A DNA stretch of 64,000 bases from Raillietiella orientalis (Eukaryota). A program made the position numbers and the translations under genes. Position 1 is the stretch's first letter; each line of letters begins with the position of its first letter. The DNA lies in the NCBI GenBank assembly GCA_036172245.1, contig JAYWIR010000050.1:1054001-1118000 (forward strand). Reading direction: 5' to 3'. Below the pieces are notes generated by a model that was not told the DNA's origin, did not search any database, and worked only from the letters and a program-made list of their open reading frames with translations. Shown one piece after another: positions 1 to 43,883 of this stretch.

Positions 1-82
1 CCTCTTCCTGATTCACATATAGTAATGCAGGTTGTGCGAGGGATTTTTTTATTAATCAAGATTTACAAGACATCAATGTATG

Positions 83-2194: not shown

Positions 2195-3530
2195 TATCTA
2201 GGTAAGATCCACGCCTATAAAATACAAATTTGATGACAGTGATAAAACTGAAACAGAAATTCAATATATCCAATTTTCCAATGTCTAAAATAAAAACGAA
2301 TACATGTTTTGGTTCAAAATTCTCAAGAATGTATATGATTTTAGCAATATGAAGCATTTAATTTTATAAGTGAAAACATGTAAGTTCATATATTCATATA
2401 GTATCTTTACTACAAACCTAGGCTGTACAAATTAAAAATCTGAAACAAGACTGCGCCATATTTCATGGAAATTCCTGAAGACTATAATGAGTTTTGTTAC
2501 TTTTTAGTTCAGTACTTCAATCAAAACAAATCAAAGGTTCTGTTACTTTCTAGTCCAGTACTTTTAGAAGATATGGCAGATCATCTGCTGATTCATAACT
2601 TGACGCTCTCTCTTTTGCACAAGCATGATCCATGTATATTGGTAAAGTAATTTGCACCCGTTTTTAAATGTCTCGACATGAAACCTCTTTCAGTCTCTGT
2701 TCCTGAATTCACAGGCAATTCAAAAAATGTATACACATGTAAGTAGCGTTACGTGTTAATTGCATCGAAAATTATGATACAGCCAAACACCAACTTTCTG
2801 AAGACAAAAAAAAACAATCTACACCTATCACCAAGCCGTTGAAATAATACATTCTGTGGCATATAGTACCACTGAGAAAAAAGTGCTGCACAGTGAAATA
2901 CAAAACATTCTGAAGTTCTTATGAATTCATAAAAAAACTGGGCAAACGGAGCGCAAAACGAATCCAACGAATAGCCCCAAGGGCTAGTTCTTCATCGAGG
3001 GGATCGAAAATGATTTTCAAAATGATTGCGGGCACCAAAACTCAAGTGATGCATAGCTGGAATTCTGAAAACCAAACTGGAGGAAACAATCCTAAATAGA
3101 AATGGGACATGCTGACATATACGTTTCATTTGATAAAGCAGCGTGTACAATACAACCATACGAAAACGGCAATTCGGGAACCTATGCAGGAACTAAACTA
3201 TAGGGACACAAAGTTTCCTATTCATACTGTGGAATGGAGACAGCTGCATTACCAAAATGCAAGGGGAACATGTCCAAACAGAAAAGTTTCAATAATGAAC
3301 GTCTGCCCATGGAAATAAACGCAACATCAATCTTCAAAACAATTCGAACACTGGGAAAAATTATCTCACACGACCGGTGCAACTGCAAAACCGAACGCAA
3401 AATACCATCTCTCCAACTTCAAGGAGGTGGAAAATGTTTTCCACATGTATTTTCCACGAAATCTATTGAGAAGAATGAAATCCTAAACTTTGCATTCACT
3501 AAAAAAAAAAAAAACTTGGATTTCTATACG

Positions 3531-3686
3531 TAGTATATATATATATACTACGTATAGAAAACTACGTATATATATGTATATATATATATGTATATATATG
3601 TATATACATATATACGTATATGTATACGTATATATATATATATATACGTATATATATTATATATATATATATAATATATATATTTA
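3531..3686. repeat. (TA)n microsatellite with TATACG/TATG interruptions
   Basis: Directly visible dinucleotide run. Confidence 0.95.
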
Positions 3687-6161
3687 TCTACACCCTCCAA
3701 TCAATGCTGCAGTTTGTTTTTGCATTCTGGAGACGAAATGTAAAATTTCGACAATTCATGGTAGAAACTCGTCTTTTGTAAGAGGATATGAAGATTCCAC
3801 TCAGCTTCGATAATCAAAAGTGATTGATATGGAAGAATACGTTCCATACCGATTGACAAAGACTTCAATTCAACGATGCAAAGGATTTCTAGGAAAAAAA
3901 ATGAAAAGAAGAAAAAAAAACATAAAAAGAAAAAAAAAAAACCATCCAGTTGCAGAAGTAACTTGTAGACAATCATGTAGATATTAAGACAAGCTTTTCT
4001 TATTCTTATTTAGATGTTTTTACACATTCTATTGCAAATGTAACAGTAGGCATTTGAACTCCTTAGCCTTAAACGTTTTTTCCCTTGTTATTTCGTTCAA
4101 TGGTGTTTCCTATTTAATGAACTGCGTTATTAAATGTGGACATATTCAAAAATTTTCTTTATTAGTAATGTGATCGTTTTGTACAGGTCAAAACAAACTA
4201 TATGCCACTAAACAATCTCTTTGCTGACCACATATCTGATTTCCAATTTCCCCTGCTTTACATTTACTGACAAAATAAATCATTTTCATTCCTGGAAAAA
4301 AAAATAAAAATCAGGCAGACTCGCACTGCTCGTTCATAATAAGGATAAGCCTATTGCGGTGACATCTTATCCTTAATACCGATGATGACCTAATAACCCT
4401 TCAAAAATCGGAGAATCCATTACTTGTACAATTCATGTACTCCGATCTGAATTCCAGTCATAAGTGGCAGAACCAATTTTGTCCTGAATCTTAATCATAG
4501 GCAATTTTAAAGTACTTAAGGGTTTCCTTAAATTCTGTATTTCATGCAGGATGCAATTCGCGCTGCAGAACTGTTGAAGAAACGCACTCAGTTTTTTCGA
4601 AAGCCGTCTCGGAAACAACAGAATTACTTTATTTCTTCTTATGGTTGCTCCGCAAAGAATACATTCTTGATTCTGTTATTCACTATGGATCGGTTTTTTT
4701 TCTTTCTAAATCAATGCTTGGCATCTCTGCTCTTATGGTGTTCATGCACCTGTTCTACTGTAGGGAACACGCAATTGTCTGGAAGTTCTGACTCGGAAAA
4801 ACCTGCCTGACTGATGGTTTGCTAAAACAAAAATATTTCCGCAGAATCGAATTGTACAAAGAGAATATAGTTCATATTTCAAGCGTTTCCAACTGCATAT
4901 AAGCATTTGTGCGAACAAGTTTATTGAACTCGAATTTGAAGCCTAGTTTTGAACAAAAATGCGTTCTCAATTAGTCTTATGATTACAATAATTCTCATAA
5001 TCTTCTATTTAATTGGATTCACTGATGACCAAACATATTCCAGTTTACTATCATTGCAAGGCTCCCTGCAACCTGGGGTGTTTAAAAAAGGTTTTTTCCT
5101 TCTTTTTGTGAAGGACGTGATCTCGAAAATCCATGCAAAACGTCTTTAAAAAATTGTAAGGTCTCCATAAATCATCATCAAATAAAACGCCTGAGGCAAT
5201 GTTTCGGCTCAAGTGCTTTTATGAAATTTGAGAGAGAAAGATATTTCTTATACATTGTGTATTACTCAAAAAGGTCGGAAACTAATCGTTATTAAGGATT
5301 TTTAGACTGTCTGAATGCAATAACTTCTTATTCTACCATTATTATTATTTTTCCGTTACTTTAATGGAGCAGCTATTAGCAGTATTGATAAGCCAGTTCT
5401 TGTGAAATTAACGTTAAGACCAAGACTTTTTCCTTGAATTCTGGAGCACAATTATTTCACCATTGGAAAAACAAGTCCGCTGAATCCATGAAACGGCTGA
5501 ATCTCAGTTAACGAAATGTTACGCCCTTTTAACTATGAAATGATTAAAACGAAAACACTGCATGTAATCAATAGTTTGGTGGTTTGAAGGGCAGTTCTAT
5601 CGGTGAAGACCAACTAATTCTTGGGATTCGTGGGGTGCTTGCTGCGTCAAAGTTTGCCTCATTTTCTGATAGCAAAAGGTCTCTCCGATCCAAGCAGATG
5701 AAGAGATCCCACGAGCGGATCACTAACTTGAAACTGCTCCCTTGAATTGACATTTTTTAATCCGAGCAAAAGGAAAATGGAAAAAAATATCCGCGTATGA
5801 AACGCAGAATAAACGCTGATCATAGATTAACTATTTCCGTGAATCACCGCAGACATACCATTCCAGCTCTCCGTATGCTTAGAGAAAATGCACATGAACT
5901 CTACTTTCCGACCTCCATTCATGGGTGAAACGACTGCTCAATGTTCCCTATTTTCCTTCTCTTAAAAAAGAGCGTGAGCATCGCCGAATGTTACAACCAC
6001 GTCTAGATAAACTGGAAACAGAAAGGCGATCGATCAGTGAGCATGGAGGCTTTGAAACCACATGACATCGTTTTTCTTTTAACTGAGAAATTTTCTGAGC
6101 AAATCCTGTGGAGATCACGCGTGCACGAGCTGCATGTGTTGAAATCAAAGGATTTCGGTAG

Positions 6162-6495
6162 TCTTCATGACAGGGGGGTACCCCGGGAGGGCTCCGCCCT
6201 ATGAATCCAGGAAGGACTCGGAGTCCGTTCCTCTCACGCCTGGGGAGGGATCCCCGGAAATGGAGTTCACCTCCACCCTGGTTGTCTCCAAAGGGGAATC
6301 CCGAAGAGAATCTCCTTCCTCATTCTCTCCGAAGAAAATCTCGTAGGGGTCCGCTCCAGTTTTTCTTCTCTGAAGGGAACCCGGAAAGGACCCGATCCTG
6401 GAGTTCCTTCTCCGGAAGGAGCCCCCGCAAGGGATCCGATCCTGTTTTTACTCCTCTGAAGAGAAACCAGGTTCCGAAATTCAGAAGGACGCAGT
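6162..6495 (-). repeat. Partial copy of the hairpin-array element at 45105-45940
   Basis: Reverse complement matches ~45530-45870, e.g. ccgccctatgaatccaggaaggactcggagtccgttcctct and accctggttgtctcc. Confidence 0.85.
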
Positions 6496-9400
6496 GAGGA
6501 AATGAAACACACAGAAAGTATAAACTCCTTCGTGGAACAATTCTGAACGGACTGCTTCATTATTACAACGGTTTCTTAAAGGAACAGACATCGCAAAAAG
6601 GAAAGAAAGAAACTGTTCAAAACTATGAAATTTTCATTGGCTGCCATTCTTTCCCAGTGGGTGGAAACTAATGTAACCATGATTCCAAGTCTCTAATGGA
6701 AACTCGACACTTGAGGTTTCAATACACGTACGTTCACGCGATGGCAGACACGTGTGCGTTTGATCCGTGTACCACCGTTTTTCGTTCGAAGCAGCATTTG
6801 ACAGCAAGTACAAAATGGGGGCGAGGCTGTATCGGGTTGCAGGATACACGCACATCCATTCCTTCGTAACCACGGAAGCGCATCCCTCGTGAGAAAACTC
6901 CCGGTTCCCCACATATGTTCCTTCCTGGAGATGCAGTCGCCGTTTCCGGGTGATCTGCGTTGCGTAGAAAGCTCACGGATGGCTGGTGCAACACGCCAAT
7001 CGATCTCTGGATCTGGACCGCGAAGATCATTGCGAACCGCTTTTCAACTTTCTGCAAAACCAGTTCCTATTTTCCACGACTTGCTCTTTTCATGCACGGT
7101 AACTTTAGCAATCAGAAACGGCTTCCGGTAAGGCCAGAAGGGCTCCGCAAAGCAAAACCAACCATAAAACCCGCAACATCTTTGCTTCGGAAAACAACGG
7201 AACACATCACGAAATCCCAAGTTCCTGGACGAGTGAAACGAAAAGCGGGTGGGTCAAGAGATTCGCTGTTGAACCACGAGAGATCATGTCGTCACATGTC
7301 TGAGCCCCGTGATCTCACGGCTAATGAGTAATTCCGCGATGCTCTCCGGAAGACACGCAAGATCTTTCAAGCACGCAGTTTACTGTCCCGGCAAAACATG
7401 AGCCACTTACTTTCCGTGAGTGTTTCTTCGAGCAGTATCGACCAGGTTATCGAGGATTGGTTTGCCACATCGAATCAAGCGTTCCGCACTGTCCGCTGTC
7501 ATCGTGTGAGTCGCAGTACTCTCTCGGCTCCTTATCGGCGCTGCAAGAGTAAATATTTTCGCAAGAAATTTTGCGCAACTCCACATTCGCCAGCCTGCGA
7601 GCTTAGGAAAACCGTTTACAGATAAGAAGCGCTGAGGCAGGCACACACCACAAACAGCGCTCCGGAACGTTCAAATTTGTGGACGTTTGTTTGCAAATAT
7701 TCTGAAGCCATGTGGCCGAGGCGGCAGCGTAACCAGGCGATCTGCATTCAGCCGGAAACCTTCTTCTCACCTCCTCCCCTCCCCTCCCCTCCCCCCCGCC
7801 CCCGCCAACCCAAGGGATTCGGGAAATTCGATCTGCAACCACATCCCGCACCTCATGCTAAGACACCTTGCTGGCGGATGATGACACTTGGTGAGGTGCG
7901 ACCGCACACGTCAAGAGGAGGAAGCTCTCGATCAAATCCACCACCGGTTCGAAGTTGCATCAATGCAAGTAAGGAAATCCATCTTCCGCGCATCCGCAGC
8001 ATGGAATAATGAAGATGCAGGAAGAAAAAAAAAAAAAAAGGAGAGACGAAAACGAAATGTCGAAACGTGGAAACGTACAACTCGTCACGAAATTCTCCCA
8101 ATATGAGAAACTCCACCTACAGCAACTGATGAATCCCTCGGTACGGAAGATTCCACACATTCTTCTTTAATAACACTTTAAGGATTTTTCAGTGGAACAT
8201 ACAAACTAAAGTGCTGTAGCGTGTGATTAAGGGTTAACGATAATCAATTAGATTAGGATTGTAAAAACGAAAAGCTGAGTTCAATACTGCACATTAAATA
8301 CATACACATAGTTGCCCTAGACACTTCCCTAGTGATCCATGTTTGTTTACATACAAACTTTGAGTGCAATCGAATGATTGGATTAATCTTCATTAACCCA
8401 ACGTGTGGGAATGAAACGTGCACCTTTTGCAAATATGTAACCTTTACTTATGTAACCATAAGTACATCAGTAAGTACAAGGATGTACTATATCCTACTAT
8501 GTTAAGTCGTTCAATGTAGATGTACAAAACTTGGAAAATTTCTCTTAAACGACATCATTTGCGCACGCAAAGTTTTCATCATTTGTAAATCAAAATGCCT
8601 GAAGTTCACATACAACAGATTGGATGTTTACCTGATGTTTTTTTGATATACACCTTTCCGTCCACAAATCCTCACTCACTTCTGTGTGAAGCCTGTCTCA
8701 AGATTGTATTGCTATCTTTAGCTTTAAAACTCCCACAGACTAGAAACAGATGTTGCCTGACAGACGATCACTTCATGTTGCTATGTCTAGCCATCAATGT
8801 TAACCAGTCCAAAAAGGAGTATTCATGACTCCCTGAGGGACTATCATTTCGAATCCTCAGAAAAATGCACATGCGTACATAACGCATTGAAAGTTCTCTT
8901 TTCATGTTCAGTTGGAGAAATCCTAATCAAACGACTTTTTTCAACAATGACTCGTATTCTGAAATGCACACCTAAGCACACGTGAAACACATCTCTTTAA
9001 AAAATATCAAGAATATGTAAATGAATTTATTTTTATACTAATTATGCATCAACGACCATGGTACTACCTGATATTTGATCGCTCTAACCAAAAGACTGAT
9101 TTTCATACGTATCTTCTGATTTATTTTGGGAAATGAAAAAGTGAAGATAAATTTACAGTTTGCACGTTATCACCAAACACGAATGGATGCTGAATCAAAA
9201 CAAGTATTATAAAAATCATTCCAAACAACTCGAGAAATCTTGCAATGCTTTCTGTATGGGCTCAACGGAGTGCCCTCGGAAATAACGTAGCCTTTTGGTA
9301 GGCTGAAGTTTTCGAGGACCACTTCCTCTACGATTCTAAATGATTTCCATCTGCCAGGACGTCGCTACTCGGCTGCATCACAGACGTCGGAAAGCACGCC

Positions 9401-11686
9401 AAAACTTTCGATTCATTTCTTTGGTGCCAATCCACTTTCCTCATTCTGGCAAACCTGCAGCCTTCCTGTCTTTCACATCAAAGGCGGCGGCACTTTTCGT
9501 TATGATTCAAACCAATGATACAGCTGCTGACGAAAAAGCGGTGCACAGGAATTTTCCTAAGAAGGCCAAATAATTGTAACTAAAAACCTAAAAATTAATA
9601 TCGTGCAAAAATTACGTATAATCACACGGCAAAGCACTGAAATCAAAAGAGCCAACTTCAACATGTGGTTTACGTTACGTTCAAAAAAAAGCCAATCAGG
9701 GAAACATTAAGGCGAGCGCAAACTTCCACTTTTACGGAATTTTTTTTCCTCTTGAACATTCATATTGTACCCTTTCATCTTAGTTTTACTGTTTTAAGGA
9801 ATATGCAATCTGCAGTATCTGCGAAAGGTTCACCCAAAACAATTGAAACCCCAAAATCAGAATTCAATTGTACCGTTTCCCAGATTTTCACTAGGCAAAT
9901 ACGAAAATCGAAACCATGACCAGGAAACCAAATCAAAACGAGATTAAAAGCAGATGATGTGTTGTTGTTTTTCTTCTTCTTTTGGCTTTTTCAAACCTTG
10001 AATTTGCATTTGGATTTTTCAATCCTTCCTCAAATATCATCCATATTGGAAGACAACACGTAACAGGCCACGCATTCCAACTCGTACGGCCTTTCCACAG
10101 GTATATACTAAACCTCAAACAAGCTACTCGTCAGCTGTTATGCAAAGGTAAGTTTCCACACTAAATAATATTTGATTCAAACTCTAAAACTGAGACTTAT
10201 TTTCATAGAATTCACACCACATAGAAAGCTGTTCAAACAACCATAAGCTTAACCTTAATCCTCATTGTCATCTGATGCAAAGTAGACTAATGGCAGTTGT
10301 TTTATCTTGTGAATAATGAGGCAAAACTACACTGGACTACATCATAAACTTGCAACTCGATTGGAGAAGAATGATGTACAAACTAGCAGTGCTAACGTTA
10401 AAGAAAAGAATCCTGTGCTTTCACTGACATCTGACTATAATCATCTTAACCACGATTATGCAACTTTCATGCAACCTGATTTTTTTTCTTGCTTGCAATG
10501 TACTTTTTCCCAATTACTCTGCTGGATAACAAAGGCATACAATAATTTACACAAAATTCTTTATTGGTGGTACATAAAATATTTTCAAAAAGCTTATCAA
10601 CACTGTGTGGGATCCTGAGTTCTTAAATAAATTTAACTCAAGAGAGCAACATCCAAAATAATTATACTGTCACCTAATCTTTGGAAAAATAAACATATTA
10701 CAAGGAGAAAGCTAAGGTTTACAAGATCCCAGAATTTCCACTGCTTATCAAAATAATCTTTGATAAATAACAAATTGGTATACCAAGATTCAATAACTTT
10801 AAGATTAATGTTCAACAGCGTACAAAAATGGGATAACTGTTTAAGTGATTTCTTAGAAATTATCCTAGTAATACAAAGTATGAAAAATTACTGTTTGGCA
10901 GTGGGCAGAAAGAAATCATGAAGAGCACAAAATGTATTATGAAAGCTACACAGTGTAAACTTCACAAAAATCTTTAGGATTTTCCCTGGCAGGATCCATG
11001 ATCATATATATTATACAATTAACTACGTAATGCAGCATGAGAACACATGAGTTATATTAATGATTTCAACAACCAAATACTCTTAGGATGATGGATGGAA
11101 GAATGAGGAATCCTCTCAGCATAGAATGCAACCTCCATAGCAATCTATTATTCCACATGAAATTTCCTGTTGTTAAACATAAATAGTCCTAAAGGCATGC
11201 AAAGGATAGGTGATTTCATTTACATATACAAAAGTCAATTCATTTGTTCAACTGCCAACCTTTCATGTGATGGGTTTTCCCATAAATCCCTTGATTAGTT
11301 GTGAAACATGGAAACTATTCGCTATGCAAAGTGCAAAATAAATTGCATGCTGGTAAATACTAAATTACAAACAATTATGCAGTTACTTTTGCTTTGGGAA
11401 CATCAAACCACCACAAGCTGTGCAATTAGTGATATTGTTTAGGCAGATTGACAAAACCTGGAAATGATCCTTGAATTTTAACCAATGTAGCTCAAAAAAG
11501 ACCTCAGCAGTGAGAACCAAGTATGATGCAACATATTTTAAATACATAAACTAAATTCAAAGGTAAACAAAATTATTAGATAAAATGAGAACTTTATTCC
11601 ACATAATACATAAAAACAAAAATGCAGTAGTTGTCCATTAAATTATAAAACATTAAAAAATAAAAAAAGCATATAATACTTTGCAA

Positions 11687-12676
11687 TCACATAGTACCTA
11701 ACATTGTTGTGGATCCAGTTTTATTTAGGGATGAAAATGAATTGGAGCGGGCAATTCCTATGTACTTAAATAATATGTGATACATACAATACCACACAAG
11801 CATGGCAACTAAACCACCAACAAGTTTTTGAGGTAACGTATGGAAATATAATATGGTAGCAAGGAGCATAACGTCCCATAAAATGCTTAAAACGGTCAGC
11901 ATGATGAACACAGTTCTAACAAATGGTGTAATTAGGACATAGAGATGTTGTAGATAATGAAATTCACTGTCAGATAACATAGAAAGAGGCGTTGTATTTG
12001 GTATATCATTCTTCCGAGAATAATTTTCGTTGAGAAATACATGCTCTAGATTCTCCCATCCCTTCATTGCACGTGCTTCTTCTTGGATGAACAGATTACA
12101 AAATATCAGGATAAATGCATGACCAGATATATCAAAGCCAAACCATTGTAATTGCAGTTGTTCACAACATTTCTTCGTTGAACATAATTCACCCCCTCTT
12201 CCGTGGCATCGTTCAAACCATTTTTCAATGAGATGAAAACTTTGAATGCTGAGAAACCAGCCAAGCGACCCCAATACAGGTCTTGACAACTGTTTCAGGA
12301 TTTTTCTTTTATTGCCACAACAATATACGTAACCGGTTAATGAAATAAAGCACGTCACAATACAAAAAGTCCATCCCCAAGAATATTTTACAAAGTATTG
12401 ATTGAAGACATTTTCCTTCGCACTCAAATAAGACTTTGGAAAAGGTAAGAAATCCGTGATGAGGGATCCAACGAATAGTAGTAGAAAATACACAGGAATT
12501 CTTGTCTCGAAATTCAAGAACAAAATCTTTTTACAAATATGCATCAACAATAACAGAAAAACCTTCCGTATGGAAGTGGGTTTGGGCAAGGGCTTCAAGA
12601 TGGCATTCCCCAATTTCTCGCATTTCGAGTCTTCCTCGAAATAACGAAATTTTAACGGTGCCTTCCGTAAAGGCAT
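11687..12676 (-). CDS. FITM2: Fat storage-inducing transmembrane protein (FIT family acyl-CoA diphosphatase), intronless
   Basis: 329-aa ORF with NVFNQYFVKYSWGWT, GFDISGHAFILI, IQEEAR and YFHTLPQK motifs of FIT/Scs3 proteins; several hydrophobic segments. Confidence 0.93.
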   Translation of the reverse strand: MPLRKAPLKFRYFEEDSKCEKLGNAILKPLPKPTSIRKVFLLLLMHICKKILFLNFETRIPVYFLLLFVGSLITDFLPFPKSYLSAKENVFNQYFVKYSWGWTFCIVTCFISLTGYVYCCGNKRKILKQLSRPVLGSLGWFLSIQSFHLIEKWFERCHGRGGELCSTKKCCEQLQLQWFGFDISGHAFILIFCNLFIQEEARAMKGWENLEHVFLNENYSRKNDIPNTTPLSMLSDSEFHYLQHLYVLITPFVRTVFIMLTVLSILWDVMLLATILYFHTLPQKLVGGLVAMLVWYCMYHILFKYIGIARSNSFSSLNKTGSTTMLGTM

Positions 12677-12699
12677 ATTCCGAGTTCCTTATTACAATA

Positions 12700-13400
12700 C
12701 AACGTTTTGATGGTCACACAATTTCATACCATTTTTTTATGAAAACATGGGAACGGGGGTGCGGGTTGCGCAATACAGCACGAATCCGTCCGCACGGAGA
12801 CGCCCGGCAACGCGACGAGCCCTTTGCAGGGTCTCGAACCCCATAAGGGCCGGTTTGCTCCACAAGGAAACTGGGGAAAAAGATCAAATGCTTCGACACG
12901 TAACCCTCATTACCTTATCACCGTACGAATGCATCAGCGCGACGTGCCTCCGGCCGGGCGTGCCTCGGCTTCGGCCGCCAACGCTTCGCTGGCAACGCGG
13001 AAACACCGCGCATCCTTGGCGCCACTGCTTCCGAGAGTGTGAGGCTGTCCACGGCATCCTTTCGTTCCAGACGAGAAAGAAAGGCCGAGGGGGGAGAGGG
13101 GGAGAGAACCCGATGCTTACACGCCAGACGAAGTGTTGGTTGCCTTTGGTTTCGTTTTGCTTCCCCGTCTGTCTGCGATTCTCGGTTCGGCGAGCATCCC
13201 TTTTGGCGCCGCCTCATAAAGTATACTTTTTGTATCGTTGCAAAACTCTTTCGATTATACAGGAAGGCCGTCTATTTTTGCATGGCACTTTGAGCACACG
13301 GTTGCACATTACATGGCCTTCTTTGCTGGGAAGGGGGATTTGTGCATCAGCAGAAGGAAGAATGTAAGGTTCGGTTGTCCGTTTTTTTTTAGAAGTAGGA
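12700..13400. promoter_or_regulatory. CpG-rich island, likely divergent promoter for FITM (-) and EB1 (+)
   Basis: GC/CpG-rich block directly upstream of the FITM ATG, ending in a + strand donor-like site (aat|gtaagg, ~13344). Function is inferred. Confidence 0.5.
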
Positions 13401-16400
13401 TTCGGAACAAGTTCGTTCTAGACGATTTGGCTAATGAGCTGTTTCCACTTGGAATTATCAAGAATTTCGTTCCTGTTCACCCAACTGCATGAAATTGAAA
13501 TCTGATTGCCGTTTTTCGTGAAAAAGCATAGTAAAATTTATGAAATGCTTCTTGGGCGGAAATAGACAATGAGCATTTTCTTATAATATTTCATTGGCCT
13601 TTCTTATGATGTAAGTGGAAACGTATTGATCATTTCATACACTCTTATTTGACTTTTGGATTGTTAACCAGAAGCTTTCCTATCTATACGTTATCATGTT
13701 CTACCTCACTCCATTGAAGTACCATTTAGTGAACTCTTGACTATTAGACTTCAACTTTCTTGCTGTTATTGCCTCTAATTTTTGCTCTCATGTTCTCATG
13801 ATATTCTTCTTCTATCAAATAAACCATTATAAATTAAGCACAGAATTTCAAAAAAATGTTTTTGCTTGTATCGGAAATTCCATCTACTTTGACTGAAGTT
13901 AGTGCACTTAAAATAAAAGAAAACATCATCTCAAGATTCTTTAGCTGACCAGTCAAGATATTTTTACCCGTATGTATACTTTTTTTCTTTTTGTCTCACT
14001 GAGCAGATCAGATGACTGCTTCTTCTACACCAGAATATCCAGGATATGCAGGCTGCCCATTTCTTCTTAACCTAAGGCGTTATCCAAAATTGACATTTTG
14101 AACAATAAGGCATGTAACATCCAATCTCTTTCAGAACGAAAGAAAGTTTCTAAGGCGGAGCCAACTGTTGTGGGTGCCTTCAACTCTATCACAACTACGA
14201 ACTAGCCTGCACCTGGTAATCACTGTCGACAACCTCACAGGAATAAGATGAAAAGGATGATGTCAGGAACACCTCTGAGTTGAGACGATAATTTGTCTTT
14301 GCTATCTCGGTACCAGTGATTAGTACAAATTTTTAGTCTTTCCTTCCACAAATTCGAAGCGTGTCGATGATTGCAAACAACCTTTCGCGAATTCCAGTGT
14401 AAAGCTCGAAGGTCTGGTTGTGTGTCCTAGAACGATGACCCAAGCTTCTTCCTATAGGTATTATTAAAAAGGTGAGAGAGCCACTAAAATTTTCAATTTC
14501 GTGAACACCTACAAACTTACTGTTTCCTATGTTGCCAAAGATAGCATCTGCATCACGAAGTTGGATGACTTCTCGAAAGCAAAATATACATCGTATTCAT
14601 AAGCAATCAATTCACTTTAGAATTATTCAAGTTGGAATTCAGCATCCAACAAAAGTATAATGATGAAAGAATAAAAGCGTATTTCTGAAACAAGTTAAGA
14701 AACACAACTTTCACTGGACACAAATGCAGGATCCAGTTCGCTGTCAAATATTCTGAATCGGTTTATGATCACATTTGATCCAGCTAATCCCATCTTAATT
14801 ACTCATCTTACTGTGTCGATGAACAAGTGTTCCATTACTTCCAAACAATAATTTGAACTAGAGAACACTGAGAATTCATAAGCCTCCTTTGCAGCAGTAA
14901 GAGAACTTTGTTGACGCTTTTTACTGCAATATGAATTTACAGCTTATTCAAGTACATATTCTTGCTTATTTTGCTGTTCATAAATTGTGACATCCAGAAT
15001 TTTAGTGTATAAGAATTTAGCTTACTCTGACCAAGGCAGTTTGGAGAACTCCTCAGCACTATCTAATTATGCAAGGAATTTCTCAACGATGAAGAAACCC
15101 AGAATTTCTTTAAATGGAAAGATAAGTTCAAATGATTCGTTACAACACGTGCTACAAACTCGCATTACGATTACCAAATAATGAAATGTTTTCAAACTAC
15201 GGGAAATCTAAATAGAAAACCTCAAAATATTGGAAAATTGAGAACACATCCAGTACTGAAATTTTCTCTGCTCCATTAAAGCTTATAATGAGAGAAATCG
15301 AAAACATAGAAACGAAACTCGCAATCAGTTTCTCAAAACAAATACGTTTCTTCAAGAGAATACCAAATGTAAAAGGTGTTTTTTTCTCCATATAATATAT
15401 AAGATCATCGATCAGTACCAAAAATTCAAGATTGTCTCTAGTGGAACGAGAAGTAATAATGAATGTTTTAGATTTAAAGCTATTTTATATCAAGGAATTG
15501 AAAATATAAGTACAAGATAATATCAGGAATTTTGTTTTCAAGAAAGTAAAACATGATAAATTTTCAATGCCTGAATACTGGATTAAAGAGCTGGATTAAC
15601 GCACTTGCTTCATCTTTCAAAATTTTCTTCCACAACATAGGAACATATGGAAAACGAGCTCAATGTCATAAATAATGGAAATCCATGATGAATATGTGAA
15701 TATAATTTGCTAGCTAAGTACTGATAAAACAAGAAACTTGAATTTGTTTACACATGTCAACTTTTTCATGGGGCATTTATGGCCTTTTTCGTACATTTAA
15801 GTTTTCTTATACTGTGAAAAAAATCCACGATATTTTTACACAACTTGTGTTTTATGGTTGCTTATTAATATGGGAAAAGAAGTCGCACCCATGTGTGAAA
15901 TATAAATTATTCTACCTTCCGAGACATCTGGCACGATTCTTGCCAACACATGAGGAAAAATAAATTTTGTATGAAAGAATCAAATGCAAATAACATAGCG
16001 GCTGCCTGTAAAACAATTTAGCCAATTATTTGACTAGACTTCGAGACGTGTAGAGAGCATCAACTGTCACCTTATGAATTCATTTATTATTAAATAGGCA
16101 ATGTCCACTGAATTGGAAGACATTTATTTAGGGAAGTAAATAACACTCAAAAGTAACCTCCACTAGAGATTTTGCATCACTTGTGGATATTTTCAATAAA
16201 TACAGTAGATTTTTGGATTTAAAGTCTCTCTAGAGTTATCTGTAAAGTTAGCTTTCAAAATCGTCTATTACATTTTCTTATAGAACGAAAAGTTCGAATT
16301 TAAAAAACATCGAAATTACATTTTGCAGCCATTTCTGTTTCAAGAAATATTTTTCATTACATTTTAATGAATAACTGATCTGAAAAAAATAACAAAAACT

Positions 16401-17057
16401 TATTTGAGTGCTGTATTCAGAAAGACAGAATGGAATCCTATTAATAATGCTTAATGAAAGAAAATTTTCACCATTGGAAAAGGAAGCTTCATGGAGAGAA
16501 TGCTAACTTCCACTGGAACAATTCGAGGTCAATGACTATTGCATCACTTGCTATATAGAAGGGAGTAAAGCAATTCTTTTTTAATCGTCTTGAGAATTAT
16601 TATTTTGATAGTTCTAAAAAGCAGTCAATTAATTTTTTTTAGTTTTACGTATGATTTTTGAATATTAATTTTAAATCTTTTAATGTTCTGATATTATTGT
16701 GAACTGGGTTTGCGTGTAATGATTATTGTGTTCGATTTGTTGTGTGTTAAAAGCATGGAAAATGAATTTGATCCATATTACGCATGTGTGGCCGTAAGAA
16801 TAGTAAATCGTTAATTGTGCTGAATGAATTAATTAGTTATAAATGTGATACTGATGGGCTTGAACCGATAAAAGTAGGATTAGTGACTTGCGCAAACAGT
16901 GTAGATATTAATTTTGTTGGAATTTCGACATTCTTTTTAAAATAGAAGTATTGAAAATTAGTCGAGCATTTCTGCATCATTCGTTTGTCTGCACATAATT
17001 TTTGTGTCTGCTCGCGTATTCTTATTTTCAGCTTTCGCTTTAATTTCTAGAGGAAGC

Positions 17058-19409
17058 ATGGCCCAAGCTATCAATGTAAAATCTGTAGCAACAAATGATA
17101 ACATGAGTAGACATGATTATTTGGCTTGGGTAAATGAATGCTTACAATCTTCGTACTCAAAAATAGAAGATATGTGCACTGGTGCAGCTTACTGTCAATT
17201 CATGGATATGATGTTCCCAGGTGACTGCCTTTAATTTGCTGTATCATGTATCCCAAATCACAAATTGTCACGTTAAAGTCTATTAGAGAGAGCAGTGTCA
17301 AATCATTTTGCTTGTCCATAATCATTCTTGTGAGCACCCTCTACATTGTGTGTTATGACACGGAATTGTAGGAATAAAACTTCCCTATTCAGAGCAGCTG
17401 ATCAAAAATACGTGCATTATCTGATGGTTGTAAACAAAATCCTAGGTTCATGTGACAAAAAATGTCGAGCAATAGAACCTTGGTGCTCTGTGAAAAAACT
17501 GTTTTAATTTCTTATATCTTTTTTCATGGGTTTTTTTATTGATTATTTGTGGTACCTGTGTTTGCTGTTTTTTTTCCTTGCAGCTGACTAGGGTACAATG
17601 GACTTAATGAAAGTACTAGTGTCTTGAAAGAAAATCAAAATAACTTTTCATTTTCCGGATACAAGTTGAAATTGTTTGTATTTCAAAGTTCCAGCCATTC
17701 TGATGACTTGTAAATTGTATGACTTTTTATGAAACCGAAAACAATGTAAACACTGAACCATAGACTCAGACTTTGTAGAAAATAATAATGTCGTTTAGGT
17801 ACAAATGTATGAAGTAATTGAATTAAAAATACGAAACTGTAGTTGATGATGCTTTAAATGGGAATGGAGATTTTTTTTTTTCCGTTTTTTCAGAATGGTG
17901 TTGTATTTTCTCTTTAGATTTGCAAGTTACAATCAGTTTATATGATAATTATCTCAATGGATTAATAAGTTTTCAGTTCAAATTAAAAAAAAAAGTGTAT
18001 TCTTCTATGTGTTTTTTTGTTTTTATATTTGTAATTCAATTCGTTTATGGTTTAGCATCAGTGATTAGCACATGTAGCATAGCCGTTTTCTTCCTCCATG
18101 TTACTAATGAGGCTATTTGAATGTATTCTATCATCCACTTTTGTTATGAAGGTTGATGTGTACTTCCAGTTTTTTTGGCAAAAGACCTGGAAAGTAAAAC
18201 TAATGTTTGATCATGTAAGCTCTTCTATATGGGTTTGTTTAGTTTCTTTAAAGTATCTTACTTGTCTCATTTTATTGTGGTTCTAATGAATGCATTAAAA
18301 ACACAAGTCAATGAAATTCACTGAGCTCTCAATAGAATGCACATTCAAAAATTTGTGTAAGAATCTAATTTTGGTACAGTTGTTTTGTTTCCTGTAAATT
18401 ATTTTTCGTAATTTCCCATACGCTTTATAGAAATATGTTGTACTGCAATTGAATATAAGTTGTGTGCGTATTTGGAACAGCATACTATGCATCCCGCATA
18501 TATAATTTTGTAATTTATGACATTCAAAAAATGTTCATTTAATGTTCTAATTTTTGCAGGTAGTATTCCTTTAAAGCGAGTCAAATTTCGGAGTAATCTG
18601 GAACATGAATATATCCAAAATTTCAAATTGGTTCAAGCAGCTTTCCGAAAATACAATGTTGACAAAGTTGTATTTCATGTTTTTTGATATGCTCTTAATT
18701 CTGTTTTCATAGAATATACCTGTGGATAGATTAGTCAAAGGAAAATTCCAAGACAATTTCGAATTTTTGCAATGGTTTAAAAAATTTTTTGATGCTAATT
18801 ATGATGGCAGAGAATATGATGCATATTATGCTCGTGGAGGAGAACCTGTTGGACCACCTGGGATGCAAATTCAACCACGGAGATCAAATGGCCGTGTATC
18901 ACAGTCTTTCCAAGGTTTGAAGGGAAACTTGTAAGATTGTGCAGTTATAATGTGTTCATATTTATTTGTTGCAATAGCCCCCAGAGTATCAGAGGCACGT
19001 CCAGTTGGTAATGCTACTCGTATGCCAGGCTCTGTAACTTCCAAAATGCAGCTGATGGGGGCAAGTGGAGACAATCGCAAATTAGAGGAGCTAAACTTTC
19101 AGGTATGTAAAACTCATTATCAAGTTTGACTCTATGGCCCTTTTCAGCTGACAGAATTGAGATTGACTGTTGAAGGACTGGAAAAAGAAAGAGACTTCTA
19201 TTTTGGGAAGCTACGTGAGATTGAAGTATTATGTCAGGATCAGGATGCAGACCATGATCCCTTTATCAAGCAAGTCACAGACATACTCTATGCAACAGAA
19301 GTGAGTATGTGAAATCTAGACTATCCAACTGGCACATTTGTAGGATGGGTTTGCGATTCCCGAGGATGTAGAAGAAGAAAATGTTCCACTTCCTTTGGAT
19401 GATTACTGA
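17058..19409 (+). CDS. MAPRE1: Microtubule end-binding protein EB1; exons 17058-17220, 18560-18666, 18713-18914, 18978-19102, 19148-19300, 19344-19409
   Basis: CH domain ([46 protein letters not shown]), EB homology domain ([26 protein letters not shown]) and acidic tail ending DDY*. All introns are GT-AG and in frame. Confidence 0.95.
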
Positions 19410-19552
19410 ATCTCTTTACAATATAAAGTATTAATGAAAATGCTATTTAAGGACAATGTGCCCTTAATGTATCCATGTGGGAGGCATTAGCCGCATAATA
19501 TACACCACTGTTATGTTGAATTGATTGATTCTTTTGATCATGTTTTGTGTAG

Positions 19553-20218
19553 GATTGTCTGATAGGCATCGCTTTTCGTGATTATGTTCTGTTGGCTGCA
19601 GATCGTACTGCAGCACATAGCATTATCGCATACAAACGTGATGAGGATAAAACATACAAGTTAGCTGATCATTTGTTATTGGCAGCTGCTGGTGAACCAG
19701 GAGATGCCGATCAGTTTGCTGAATTCGTAGAAAAAAACGTAGCACTTTACCGTTTGCGTAATGGTTATGATGTTAGCCCAGCAGAGGCAGCACATTGGAC
19801 TAGACGTCATTTAGCAGAAGCATTACGAAGCAGGAATCCTTATCATGTTAATCTTTTGCTAGCAGGGCATGATGCTGAGAAAGGGCCACAGCTCTTTTAT
19901 TTGGACTACTTGGCTACTTTGGTAAACCTTCCATATGCTGCCCATGGCTATGGAGGTTTCTTTTCCCTGGCTGTACTGGATCGTTTCCATAAGCCTGGTA
20001 AGTGTTGCTAACGAAAACATTTCATGGTTGTAGATATGACACTGGAGGAGGGATATCACTTGATGAAACAGTGTATTATGGAAGTTCAAAAACGATTAAT
20101 TATCAGCATGCCTGATTTTCAAGTTCAACACGTTAGTGCTGAAGGTGTACGTGCTCTTCCAGACATCAGTTTTCATCAGCTTACCCCAAGTGAAACATCA
20201 AAAATCAGTACTTTTTAA
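19553..20218 (+). CDS. PSMB2: Proteasome subunit beta type-2 (beta4); exons 19553-19997, 20034-20218; start codon unresolved
   Basis: DCLIGIAFRDYVLLAAD, GEPGDADQFAEFVEKNVALYRLRNGY, LRSRNPYHVNLLLAG, AHGYGGFF, EVQKRL; one 36-nt GT-AG intron. Confidence 0.93.
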
Positions 20219-20249
20219 GATGTATTAAAAGTTTTGATATCCAGATATC

Positions 20250-21906
20250 TCAGTTGTAAAAAGGATTATATGTTACCCAGTGAGCCTCATGCTTTTTCTG
20301 AGCACTTGGGTGACTTGTGAAAATTGATTTGTAAGTTTCACTACAACAGGGATCCTTTGCAACAGTATAAGAAGGATGACACTTTGAAATGCTTGTTTCA
20401 TTCTGCCCTGACGATAGTTTTGATTTTTTTACTTGTTCAAGGCTGTTTGATGTAGATTCCCTCTTTTTTTGTGATCGACAATTCAGGTTTTCTAACATTT
20501 TTTCTGCTTCTTCCTCGTTTGGATTAAGAATAATGACATCATCTTTGTTAAAAGGCTGCTGACACTAATGCAAATCGATTACCATCAGAAAGCTCGTACT
20601 GTTTTACCTTGTGACATGTGCTAGTGGGAATATGTTGTAATGAGCGAACAGAGAATGCACATCCACAGCTCCACAAATAGCAAAATTTATAATTTCCGTT
20701 CATTTCAAGTCCTGCCACAGGACAAATATAAGGAGAGATGTTAGGGTCTACATAAACATCGCCCTTGTCAGGTCCATGATCTTTGTAAGCTGGATTTGGA
20801 GTTAGATTCAAAACTTTAACATCCTGAAAAATTATCTAATACAGGAGTGCAATCATCACAGTAAGTACCTTGAGGCTTCGAATATGACTTATAATATCAG
20901 ATTTGCAAGACCGATTCAACAAAGCTTCAATGAGCTTATCTTTGTTGTATATTCTACCCAGTTTGCATGCAACTATGGGAGGATTGAGTTTCTCTTGACT
21001 CAAGGCACAATGCTGCCATCGGAAAACTTGCTCTGCTATTTTATCTTTCTATAAAATAAATAAAAACAATTAAAAATAAGATTTCTTTGAAATAATTCTA
21101 AAGATACACTTAGTTTTTGTTTAGGAAATAGTGATCCCAATAAATTTCTGTCTCTAATACGAAAAGCTATTAACAATTACCAATTACTGATACACAACAA
21201 GTATTTAATAAAAATGCTAAATTTCATAAATCATAGGCCTATGATAACTTTGATCACATTTTTCGGGAATTGAAAAAAAATGAATTACAACAAAACAAGG
21301 TTTCTACAAAAAAGCTACGTTTTGCAAATAAAAAATTATATTCATTCAGAGATTCACATATTATTCTCTTCAAGTTTTCTAAAAAGGCTATCAGAAAAGG
21401 ATTGACCAATCAAGCTCTTCAAACTGCATGCATGAGTTTAGTGAAACACTTGCAAACATAACATTTTTAAATTGAGGTCTTACTTCATATTTATTCAATT
21501 AAATGGCTGTTCAGACACTAACAGACTACAACTCATCAATGCTGGACACCTTCAGAATAATTTAAAGAACTTCTACAAACAACATCTTGTCCTTTCCTGA
21601 ACAAATCATCCATTAATAAGGATGACCTGAAGTACACAATAAACAAAGCCCATACGTATAATAAGTTTTTTCGTTTGGATTCCACCTTGTTTGTCAAACA
21701 TATTGGTTTGAAAACTTTATCATGTAGAAATCCTACCAGTGGCATGCTTTGAAAAAGTGCACTGCCAAATTACCCATATATCTATATATGTATATCGACA
21801 ACTTACACATGACACACAAACTACATGGAACAGTTACCTGCTCTGGCTTCTGTTTTGTCTTGACCAGCTCGTCCCTCTTGGGGATGGTTCCACCGTCGCA
21901 TCCCAT
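20250..21906 (-). CDS. RTF2: Replication termination factor 2; exons 21906-21838, 21048-20869, 20823-20608, 20564-20250
   Basis: MGCDGGTIPKRDELVK start, WQHCALSQ, LGRIYNKD, YICPVAGLEMNGNYKF, CGCAFS, YKSIFTSH and HWVTYNPFYN end; canonical in-frame introns. Confidence 0.95.
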
Positions 21907-24900
21907 TTAGTTCGTAGATAATTAATATCGGTAAAGTATTCAAATCATAAGAAAACAAAAGTTCTTAGCACAAGTATCGACCCCACAGAGAATGTCGCAC
22001 TACTGAAGTAAAGTAAAGCCGAAAAAGTACCATTTCTCTATGGTGTGATTAATATCTTGCATAGAATTATACAAAATTCTGCGCCATTTTATATGATTAC
22101 TGAAATACTTTCAGATACGAAATTCACGATCTACAAAACTAGCTGTGTGTACAAGGTAAATTCAAGAAATTCATTACAGCTATAATGTGTGAACACGGCA
22201 ACCACACCATTTTATTCGTTCTTTCATTCAGTAACTTTATTTACAAAAAAAAAACCATAAAAACAATGCATATACTCTCTTGCTCGGAAATCAAAAAAGC
22301 TTTGTGAATGGAATCATCAAACATGAAACCGAAAACTGATACACAACTTAGTGTTTTTTAGGCAGTAAAGCACAACCTTAACATGCTCAACTAAAAAATT
22401 AAAAAAAGAGTATTTGTAATGTCTCAGAAATAAGGACAAAAATTTCACGATTTAGGACTGAAAAGCATGATCACTTACCTGGGAAATATATAAAAAAGCA
22501 TATACACACTAAATTATTTCTCTTACTAATGCAATTAGTATACGTTAGTAAAGTCTCTTACGAATAAATATTAATAATCCGAACAGATTCAGGGAATAGG
22601 ATTTGAATATATTAAAAAACATTTCAGTTCATGAAAATACGACTCGTCAATAATATCGTTGCAAAGCATTTTTGTTGTTTGAAAATCTAGCAATGAGCTC
22701 AAAGGAAATAAATCAGTTCGTTGCGGATGTTGTGTACATAACATAAAGTGGAAAAACCAGAAAATTTGAAGAAAAAAAATCTCATTCGACAGCTGTAGAA
22801 ACGATCGAATAATGGCAACATCATCCACGACTGGGTCATGACTAGTAAATAATTTCAGAATGGTAAATTATGACCCTTGGATGTGCATATGTACAGGATG
22901 TGCGTACGTATACATTTATTTCCATTCCATATAATTTGAAAATGGAATGGAAAGGAATATGCATATCATAAAATATGCATTTATGCATGTAGAACATTCA
23001 CATGTGCATTCACATTTCCATGCAGTATACATATGCAATATAAATTACATTTCTTTCGGTAAAATTAGCAAAGCTTGGATTTCATAAAAAAGAGTATAAT
23101 AATAAATGCAATTCAGTTTTTTACTGGAATATGTATAGTATTCCATTTTAGCATGCTTCAAGAAACTTCAGAGCTTTATCATCAACTTGATGTTCGAGAC
23201 ATATTCGAAAAGGAAATAAAAAGTGTTTCTAAATTGTTTTCCGTTCTGTGCTTGTATCCGTGGTAGTTGATTTCTTCTAAAGTTCTACACATAAAAGTAT
23301 GTTAAAAACAGAAAATTACACATGACGTAAGGCGATTCCATCATATTTTCCTGTCTTGTCTACTCAGCGCTTTTTGTGATTTTCGGAGATTGTTTTATTA
23401 TGGGGAATAACCCATCCCTTGCTTCCAGTACATTTGCAGTACATATCTTAAGGAAAAATTATCCCTGAATAATTTTTCCTTGAATGATGTGACATACATA
23501 GGAACTCCTGAACGACTTTTTCAAATTGCCGAGGGGTAGGTGTAGGGGGAGCTTTTCGCGATCCGGACAGCTTCTTCGAACTGTTTTCTCGGTGTCCTTT
23601 TAGAATGTGGACAGCTACAGAATTATTGACGGTGGCGCACATGATGCCCTCAGTAGATCAGTCGGAAGTGCTGGATGTCGCTAGAAACAGTTACGTTCCT
23701 ATGGTGGTCTGCTTGTCTGTTCTTCAGGAGTTTGTCGTTAGCGGGATCCTATGCTCAGAAAGACCACACAATGAGAGCGTGCATAGAACCGGGCACTCCT
23801 TTGCACAAGTGCATACCAAGATTCCAGTGCTTTCTCCCTTTCCTTATTTCGACACTATCCAAAGCTATTGCTTGGAACCATCCCTGGAGTACTGTACATT
23901 GGAAAACACTGTTTTTTTCTGATGTGATTCGCCTCCGAAATTTTCAGTTCCCTCAATACTTCGTCGTATTCAGGATCACCAGATCCCAGAGATCCTATCT
24001 ACCGTGTAGTGGCTTTAACAGTCGCAGGAACCTTACGAGCTTACTTTTAAGAGCCAACCTCCGATTACATTTGCTCTTCATTTGTGTTGCCTTTTCCAGC
24101 ACCGATGATGATAAAAGAAGCACGCGACGTTCATGATGATACATCTTCTCCAAGGAGCAGCAGATGCGGCTCCAGCTTTAGGTCTCTCCCCCGAATAGGT
24201 TGATTGGAGACAACTATCTCGATTGCATGGCTCTTTCCAATCATCGCCCGGCTGTCGATGCAGCTATTGGAGAAAGTGTTTCGTGGAGATTTTTCCATTT
24301 TCTGCACAGCAGATCAGCGGCTTTATGGTGAGCGATGCTTATGCAGCCAGGGAGTTAGGTCGCTTTGCATGAATGAATATTCGAAGGGAAAGTGCTAGGC
24401 GTTATGTGTTTGATAGAAAATGCTCTGACGCTCGGCACTGCTTAACACAGCCCGAGGCTTTTCCTTGAGGCGTGTGTTTTGTGACATGGGACCGCATGCT
24501 GCCTTGCGTTGAACTGTGCTCGGTCTGCCGGCAATTTTCTTCCCATGTGCGTGTGGAATGTGCACTCACCAAACATGATTCTTGCTCCTTTCTCGAACGT
24601 CCATTTCACCTGAACTAAGCTGGACAGTGATTTCTATCCAGATGTTTTCCATGTTGCTTGACTTAAAATGCGGATCTTCGTACGTTGTCGCCGTTTCTAT
24701 GGTTTCCTTTTCAACGCTGAACGTCACGTCCTTCGATATGCATCTTTCATTGCCATACCCAGACAGGGTTAATCGTGTGAAAGAACTATCAGCAATGAAT
24801 GGAGTTGTCGACTTCGTCAGACAGATTGGAAAGGTAACTGCAGCATCCTGAGGATGGTAAAGAGGGTGGTGAAGCAAATGTCAGAAAAGGAGTTTTTCCA

Positions 24901-43330: not shown

Positions 43331-43883
43331 GTGCAGAACTTCAGTGAATCCCAAGGACTTCCAGTGAATACAGAACAAGTAGTGTATTGTATGAATGTGA
43401 CTGTAGTGTGAATGATATTAAAAAAATGGAAATAAATTTACCCCACCCCTTGTGGGACCTGGGAAAAAAAATAAATAAATAAATTATTGCATTGTTGATA
43501 AAGATTGTCGAGGAAAACGACCTCCCTATTATTAAAATATTTCGATATTTAAATTGTGATTTTTGTAATGCAGCAGCAACTGTTCTGAGTATTTAATTAC
43601 AATGTACAGACTTCTCACGTTTTGTATTAACTATAGCTAATAAGACCATCAGTACGGCGTTCGATACGTTTGTAAGGAGAGCAGCAGCAATAGTTTAAGA
43701 ACATAAATTTCACGTGATCAACAATTAATTCTCAGTTTGCATTTTACTTTTGTATTATTCTGTCTGAAGCTTAAATCACATTATGTGACATAATAATAAT
43801 AATAGTAACAATGAGAATAATAATAAATTCCTAGGTCTGGAGATTTCTTTGGAAAATCGCGGGTTTACGAGCACCATCTAGGG

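Follow-up and report, generated by a model that had tools for sequence, protein, structure and literature searches.

Structure of the EB1-PSMB2 locus

The question raised by this locus is from where PSMB2, the gene of a proteasome beta subunit, takes its start codon. Positions refer to the window, by which is meant the whole stretch of 64,000 nucleotides that was analysed (contig C50, 1054001-1118000; Table 1). The PSMB2 reading frame opens at 19553 directly after the acceptor TGTAG, the TAG of which is an in-frame stop, and the distance of 143 nt from the end of the EB1 stop to this acceptor is as stated in the original prediction. The first encoded residue corresponds to residue 2 of the family, a register that was confirmed by homologues and by the yeast and human PDB chains, in which Met stands directly before residue 2. 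The homologue search gave 76 matches, of which 11 do not reach the N-terminus and were left out. Exactly one Met before residue 2 is found in 62 of the remaining 65 (55 with ME and 7 with MD), while two begin further in and one has three extra residues. Among metagenome sequences, of which 17 of 36 PSMB2 loci were inspected, all 16 loci that cover the start have an ATG directly before codon 2, and four of these loci are apparently genomic. The acceptor at the border between codons 1 and 2 is therefore a derived state.

PSMB2 is intact and single-copy, with only one match in the genome (210 Mb, 491 contigs). The protein contains the PF00227 domain, has proteasome beta type-2 as best matches and lacks a propeptide; Met1 alone is missing. 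The identity is 61-65% to arthropod homologues, with barnacle, beetles and mites as the best matches, and 51-54% to copepod-like transcripts. Judged from sequence, the host is arthropod-like. Over 19553-19999 the first exon has no Met in 148 codons, several being present in homologues, and the first in-frame ATG is found in exon 2. RTF2 lies on the minus strand with its end some 30 nt away from the PSMB2 stop (20218-20253), and the 3' UTRs of RTF2 and PSMB2 must therefore overlap.

The gap between the two genes contains no ATG|GT, in agreement with the original prediction, and no ATG|GC either. Seven ATGs are found in it, and only the one at 19475 is in frame; its use would depend on one of three GC donors, at 19484, 19490 and 19493, all of them weak. 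This ATG had been overlooked, as had an out-of-frame ATG at 19540. The proposed poly(A) signal of EB1 is present and is of a non-canonical type, and the phase 0 assigned to the EB1 donor at 19301 agrees with the exon model. GCATTAG is indeed located at 19484-19490; as the trans-splice acceptor that it was suggested to be it is poor, having no pyrimidine tract. Introns in this genome are often 36-63 nt long. EB1 intron 2 (18667-18712) has a very weak donor, AAA|GTTGTA (score -6.3), which the reading frame demands.

Table 1. Positions of the features of the EB1-PSMB2 locus and of three further junction regions
Feature	Position	Strand	Remark
CpG-rich stretch between FITM (minus strand) and EB1	12600..13400	.	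from CpG count
Candidate shared first exon, coding part	13313..13363	+	ATG + 16 codons, phase 0, donor GTAAGG at 13364
Two acceptor-like sites (17031, 17050)	17017..17050	+	26 and 7 nt before EB1 ATG
EB1/MAPRE coding region	17058..19409	+	271 aa, open translation; Pfam CH and EB1
EB1 exons	17058-17220, 18560-18666, 18713-18914, 18978-19102, 19148-19300, 19344-19409	+	intron phases 1, 0, 1, 0, 0
Alternative phase-0 donor GTAAAT in EB1 first coding exon	17130..17135	+	candidate; would lend EB1 ATG + 24 residues
ATG + 3 codons with donor GTAAGC (18215), EB1 intron 1	18203..18220	+	candidate exon from an intronic promoter
Gap from EB1 stop to PSMB2 acceptor	19410..19552	+	143 nt
Poly(A)-signal-like AATATAAA	19420..19427	+	about 125 nt before PSMB2 acceptor
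In-frame ATG (19475) followed by weak GC donor (19484)	19475..19486	+	from sequence
GTGGGA junction motif	19477..19482	+	76 nt before PSMB2 exon start; overlooked in the original prediction
Two weak GT donors (19510, 19515)	19510..19520	+	43- and 38-nt introns; neither yields an in-frame ATG
Branch-point-like TTGATTGAT, T-rich tract, acceptor TAG	19521..19552	+	from sequence
PSMB2 (proteasome beta-4) from codon 2	19553..20218	+	exons 19553-19997, 20034-20218; 209 codons + stop
TLDC1>RTCA	window 1-85 and L145 9940-10000	minus (window)	gap 129 nt, no GTGGGR
SUCLG>COMMD	C20, L125 950-1110 of minus-strand read		gap 140 nt; ATG of COMM-domain gene 10 nt behind acceptor
ZMAT2>CCDC93>NDUFA5>ZnF cluster	C6, L159 6480-9770	minus	gaps 69, 158 and 214 nt

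An RNA library from a relative contains both EB1 and PSMB2. One run was used (share 0.05 of sampled words) and mapped on 16800-22200 at 80% likeness. Eight contigs were obtained, five of them at 90-99% likeness, and these cover EB1 (spliced at introns 1 and 4), PSMB2 (over 19586-19927 and 20079-20243) and RTF2. The contigs leave 19334-19514 uncovered and none reaches the PSMB2 start at 19553, a coverage gap that is no evidence. No loose end at 19553 or at the EB1 start and no leader was seen in these eight contigs. Loose ends at 18807, 21859 and 21906 were rejected as a leader; they resemble EB1 and RTF2 of another organism, and we take them to be close to the vertebrate proteins. An 80-nt joint upstream of RTF2 lacks canonical ends.

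Junctions of the same type in the genome

PSMB2 is one instance of a genome-wide junction arrangement. Three further ATG-less genes were examined: MLH1, 178 nt behind the PLOD stop and with no ATG anywhere in the gap, MMAA, 144 nt behind the PAM16 stop, and CCDC134, 167 nt behind the stop of class II PI3K (PI3K-C2). All three open in phase 0 with a G directly after the acceptor AG. Together with PSMB2, four of four ATG-less genes thus open in phase 0 at an acceptor. By eye, we take the peptide at the CCDC134 acceptor to be signal-like and that at the MMAA acceptor to be mitochondrial-targeting-like. The junction genes were named from Pfam or NCBIfam matches and otherwise from the look of their peptides, the Pfam scan comprising 149 of 539 coding-like frames. 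In all likelihood the missing start codon of PSMB2 is a real feature and no artefact.

Five tight junctions in which the second gene does have an ATG were met in the inspected DNA, with gaps of 69-214 nt, which is also the range of all nine gaps; unpaired acceptors recur across the genome. The RTCA gap has an AATAAA about 94 nt before the acceptor, and the ATG of RTCA lies 11 nt behind the acceptor and out of phase. The ATG of TLDC1 is itself 3 nt behind an acceptor, and the first exon of this gene is apparently non-coding. The gene before COMMD is presumably a succinyl-CoA-ligase-beta-like gene (SUCLG). In the ZMAT2 cluster the downstream ATGs are found 6 nt, 6 or 0 nt, and 3 nt behind acceptors, all in phase, NDUFA5 by way of a second acceptor. 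A poly(A)-like word is present 87-167 nt before the acceptor in six gaps; neither AATAAA nor ATTAAA occurs in any of the three ZMAT2-cluster gaps. The second of these gaps (CCDC93>NDUFA5) has a 10-bp stem before the motif described below. A segment of a PI3K exon recurs some 9 kb further upstream and does so on both strands (L086 and L087, contig C15).

The seven proteasome alpha genes, used as controls, all have a genomic ATG. In two of them the ATG|GT exon is located 0.6 and 2.9 kb upstream, showing that far first exons are normal in this genome. With regard to the COMMD5/OFD1 pair, the genome has three COMM loci, none recognisable as COMMD5.

A motif shared by the junctions

The four ATG-less gaps have a single 6-mer in common, GTGGGA, located 49-80 nt ahead of the exon. 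Of 5000 dinucleotide shuffles, 6.8% yielded some shared 6-mer and 0.06% one with at least three G or C, this class being chosen post hoc. As background, 174 of 11,123 acceptor-like sites have GTGGGA at a distance of 49-80 nt. In the gaps of the ZMAT2 cluster, which were examined afterwards, GTGGGA was found once and GTGGGG twice, while the RTCA and COMMD gaps have neither. After inspection of the data the last letter was widened to give GTGGGR. In this form the motif is present within 160 nt in seven of nine downstream genes and is lacking in all 13 genes that come first or stand alone (Fisher p 0.0002); with the four discovery gaps removed it is present in three of five downstream genes (p 0.012). 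At the ZnF gene the distance of the motif is 135 nt when measured to the acceptor adjoining the ATG and 87 nt when measured to a closer AG.

The presence of the motif follows the reading phase. An incoming phase-0 ATG would be in frame with all seven genes that carry the motif and out of frame with the two that lack it. Junctions of the EB1-PSMB2 type recur, with this anatomy, phase and motif; the phase rule, the GTGGGR motif and the pattern of ATG donors among the partner genes (below) are newly found. GTGGGR resembles a 5' splice site and might bind U1 or direct a leader. GTGGGA was tried as a working donor and rejected, as an in-frame stop three codons upstream would remain for PSMB2.

A scan for further GTGGGR junctions gave 38 rows in which the recognisable ones were all already known. 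YCCCAC before ATG|GT gave three chance-like matches in 772 kb. TAYYTT, the Ur sequence, was not among the 6-mers shared by at least three of six gaps.

Origin of the PSMB2 start codon

As PSMB2 has no start codon of its own, splicing must import one from upstream, and the other gene pairs of like build seem to include several such cases. The weights given below to the competing readings are judgements and were not computed. The reading preferred here, to which we give slightly less than an even chance, is that EB1 and PSMB2 form one transcription unit and that the PSMB2 ATG is spliced in from a shared upstream exon. The unit would be driven from the CpG-rich stretch near 12600-13400, which is likely its promoter; the CpG counts per 300 nt are 24, 32 and 12 in this stretch, and in the flanks (8100-19500) 0-11 with the exception of one bin of 14. 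One route would give the EB1 mRNA, ending near 19440. In the other, a capped upstream exon would be joined to the acceptor at 19552 with omission of the EB1 body, whether within one transcript (in cis) or from one transcript of the locus to another, and would bring PSMB2 its ATG in phase 0. The GTGGGR motif, 50-90 nt before the acceptor, may mark such junctions.

The best local donor of the ATG would be the exon ending at 13363 (ATG at 13313). It would add 16 residues, perhaps trimmed inside the proteasome like the propeptides of other beta subunits. The exon is in frame with PSMB2, and its donor at 13364 is the best at the edge of the CpG-rich stretch. For EB1 it constitutes a short upstream frame, which closes before the EB1 ATG if the acceptor at 17031 is used. 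Four of the eight donors that score at least 3 in 12700-19552 have an in-frame ATG, and the candidate exon taken alone is therefore no better than chance; the donor score was built on approximate frequencies. Alternatively, the EB1 ATG could be supplied by way of the donor at 17130. No strong ATG|GT is present on the plus strand in positions 1-19552 of the window (best GT score -0.4), and one is found 35 kb away inside a gene on the opposite strand.

The partner genes of the other junctions point to the shared exon. PAM16 has a first exon ending in ATG|GTAAGT, 3.3 kb before the second exon, the signal-peptide exon of PLOD ends in ATG|GTAATT, PI3K-C2 shows ATG|GTAAGT twice, at codons 3-4 and at the last intron, and ZMAT2 has a first exon of five codons in phase 0. 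An early exon able to donate an in-frame ATG is thus found in the first gene of four of the five motif-bearing clusters, EB1 being a poor fit. Strong ATG|GT is rare in this genome (33 in 991,590 strand-nt, 0.033 per kb) and the four fits can therefore hardly be due to chance, even though several places were examined and the sites at the partner genes were identified post hoc. Against the shared exon, EB1 heads the only cluster of the five without a strong ATG|GT, and the exact cut between codons 1 and 2 is better suited to an exon ending in ATG than to one of 17 codons. The 62 homologues with a single Met before residue 2 have no N-terminal extension. The PLOD and PI3K routes would require leaky scanning past an out-of-frame ATG, the skipping in cis of a multi-exon gene of 9 kb is unusual, and gaps that lack a poly(A) signal together with the tight spacing suit operons resolved by a leader better.

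A distant exon, or a leader ending in AUG, together with an operon-like unit had been offered as one option in the original prediction. This option gains support from the three additional ATG-less genes in phase 0 and from the shared motif, with the DNA leaning to the shared exon. In the version with a leader, which we consider unlikely, an operon is resolved by a spliced leader that is trans-spliced to 19552 and supplies Met1, with GTGGGR as the counterpart of the Ur element. Such a leader would yield exactly the conserved Met1-Asp2 without any extra assumption at PSMB2, and the phase rule fits a terminal AUG equally, the seven motif-bearing genes being in phase with it and the two motif-less genes not. 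The distance of the poly(A)-like words in the six gaps can be compared with the C. elegans operon median of 129 bp, and the distance of GTGGGR with that of the Ur motif, about 50 bp upstream (PMC7668243). Leaders also occur in crustaceans, as seen in two metagenome PSMB2 transcripts with the leader of calanoid copepods (PMC4664967). On the other hand, the ATG|GT that PAM16, PLOD and PI3K have at their 5' ends would under a leader be coincidence, a genomic ATG is found in all seven proteasome alpha genes, and flatworms are the only group for which the literature examined reports a leader that ends in AUG.

Searches for a gene of such a leader also count against it. The narrow pattern ATG|GTRWG with an Sm-like site had 25 matches, nine of which are the end of a LINE, rejected as a leader gene, and 16 resemble ordinary donors or chance. 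Two patterns anchored to a promoter gave no match (reversed controls 2 and 5); these searches are narrow and weak, the U5-derived promoter core being present in 3 of 14 U5 loci and absent at the U1 loci. Narrow scans near 5S and snRNA genes found no leader gene. Rfam had no matches in the 64-kb window, and the 3' parts of three copepod leaders are absent from 532 kb of loci in this genome. The Sm sites of copepods are variable (PMC4664967). It is likewise unlikely that this arthropod lineage has operons resolved by an AUG-ending leader of its own, convergent with flatworms, in which PSMB2 and MLH1 gave up their start codon and the leader is directed by GUGGGR 50-90 nt before the acceptor. The two mechanisms may also coexist: most downstream genes would then receive a leader lacking AUG, and those that lost their start codon a shared exon with the ATG.

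Rather less probable than a leader is a promoter of PSMB2 itself inside EB1, with a small first exon nearby or a non-AUG start. Candidates are the ATG at 19475 with its GC donor, the ATG at 18203 with the donor at 18215, weak ATG|GT at 17424, 17895, 18047 and 18772, and a non-AUG start before the donor at 19510, and very weak donors do function in short introns, as GTTGTA (-6.3) in EB1 intron 2. The GC donors are however poor at positions +4 to +6, there is no rise in CpG in 17100-19500, most versions lengthen the invariant PSMB2 N-terminus, and a start local to the gap cannot be the rule of the class given that the MLH1 gap is devoid of ATG. A somewhat smaller weight again is kept for some other explanation of the PSMB2 start. 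That the assembly has lost one base from an otherwise ordinary ATG exon appears very unlikely, whether at 19513-19515 or the acceptor, the places named in the original prediction, or at the AT|GT donor 13364 or 13611. Each of four AT|GT sites (13364, 13611, 19477 and 19515) lacks a single base to be a working start, but stretches duplicated between C51 and C188 show nine substitutions and no indels in 9,247 nt, although the copies are perhaps not fully independent. The EB1, PSMB2, FITM and TLDc frames are all open, and an error of one base leaves the three other genes with the same missing ATG unexplained. The least probable reading is that the EB1 donor at 19301 or 19103 is spliced to 19552 and PSMB2 is cleaved from an EB1 fusion. 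The phase-0 fit on which this proposal was based holds for both donors, and the last introns of PLOD, PAM16 and PI3K-C2 are also in phase 0, making it formally possible. A folded domain at the N-terminus of beta-4 should block ring joining, a PLOD-MLH1 fusion would carry a signal peptide, and CCDC134 and MMAA keep their presumed targeting peptides at the acceptors. The lack of a longer homologue among 8000 candidates is weak evidence in the same direction.

Comparison with known systems

In Drosophila, ten pairs and one triplet of genes, for example Su(var)3-9/eIF-2gamma, share promoter, first exon and start, and 130 genes share non-coding 5' exons (PMC4528330). As in these pairs, the proteins here are unrelated and conserved, the genes lie on one strand, and the start of the second would come from an upstream exon; PSMB2 agrees with what defines such a pair in its strand, its start at an acceptor and the lack of its own start codon. 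PAM16, PLOD, PI3K-C2 and ZMAT2 offer an upstream exon that combines an in-frame ATG with a good donor, and EB1 has the 17-codon candidate. Unlike in the Drosophila pairs, the second acceptor is here located 70-215 nt after the end of the first gene, the pairs are many, one cluster has four genes, a motif is shared, and the splice itself is a prediction from the DNA (PMC4528330). Shared 5' exons with different coding sequences are also known from CPNE1/RBM12, two genes with a common promoter, where the shared exons are non-coding (PMC2568002).

The flatworm leader has a 3'-terminal AUG that acts as initiator, in frame in 28% of those S. mansoni transcripts that undergo trans-splicing (PMC9851317, PMC12582326). 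The likeness lies in coding that begins with codon 2 behind an unpaired acceptor and in tight pairs on the same strand; the differences are an arthropod-like host and the result of our narrow searches, in which no leader or SL RNA gene was found. The opening of the ATG-less genes in phase 0 is expected under a shared exon and under a leader of the flatworm type alike. In flatworms, cis-splicing is lowest at the acceptors that resolve operons (PMC12582326). The poly(A) signal about 90-170 nt and the short motif about 50-90 nt before the acceptor are similar to nematode operons of the SL2 type, which differ in having TAYYTT in place of GTGGGR, some downstream genes here being ATG-less and no SL2-like RNA having been found in our searches (PMC7668243).

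The calanoid copepod leader shows that leader splicing occurs in an arthropod, and on PSMB2 transcripts (L091 and L092); this leader ends in AAGAG and not in AUG, and its transcripts keep their own ATG (PMC4664967). Both metagenome transcripts begin with the copepod leader at 1-57 and retain the ATG. Operons are not mentioned in the copepod leader paper (PMC4664967), and according to a second paper they were unreported in copepods or amphipods as of 2021 (PMC7986045). In the open-access literature, subscription journals being mostly outside its scope, neither an arthropod operon nor an AUG-ending leader outside flatworms was found. A donor-like motif that binds U1 and steers splicing is known from the intragenic trans-splicing of mod(mdg4), where it is located in the 5' transcript, while GTGGGR lies before the downstream acceptor (PMC4387717).

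By analogy, we propose that the EB1-PSMB2 locus may work like the shared-exon pairs of Drosophila and be laid out like an operon of nematodes or flatworms. Under either of the two leading readings, the shared exon or the AUG-ending leader, operon-like units would be numerous in an arthropod genome and the housekeeping genes placed downstream in them would borrow their start codon; an essential proteasome subunit would be among the genes that rely on an exon from elsewhere. GTGGGR provides a handle for a genome-wide listing of such junctions. Automatic annotation will fuse or truncate these genes.

LINE elements and small RNA genes

The window contains, at 43443 (plus strand), 60202 (plus strand) and about 59270 (minus strand), a LINE family whose 3' end motif is fixed; it is also present at four other loci (L129, L133, L137 and L138). 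U5 and U1 genes have copies directly next to their 3' parts, and a similar end precedes U4- and U3-like matches. The U2 matches are mostly 3' halves with no promoter. The abutting LINE ends and the U2 halves suggest that the family consists of snRNA-targeting elements. A cluster of U1, U5 and U4- and U3-like genes is found twice with 99.9% identity, at the ends of C51 and C188 (L136, L137 and L139), and is probably a haplotype duplicate. A CCACTAC core about 57 nt upstream of U5 (L072, L073 and L075) is a candidate snRNA promoter element and is absent at the U1 loci. The 5S rRNA genes occur as inverted pairs about 1.2-1.6 kb apart and not in tandem arrays (L002, L006 and L007).
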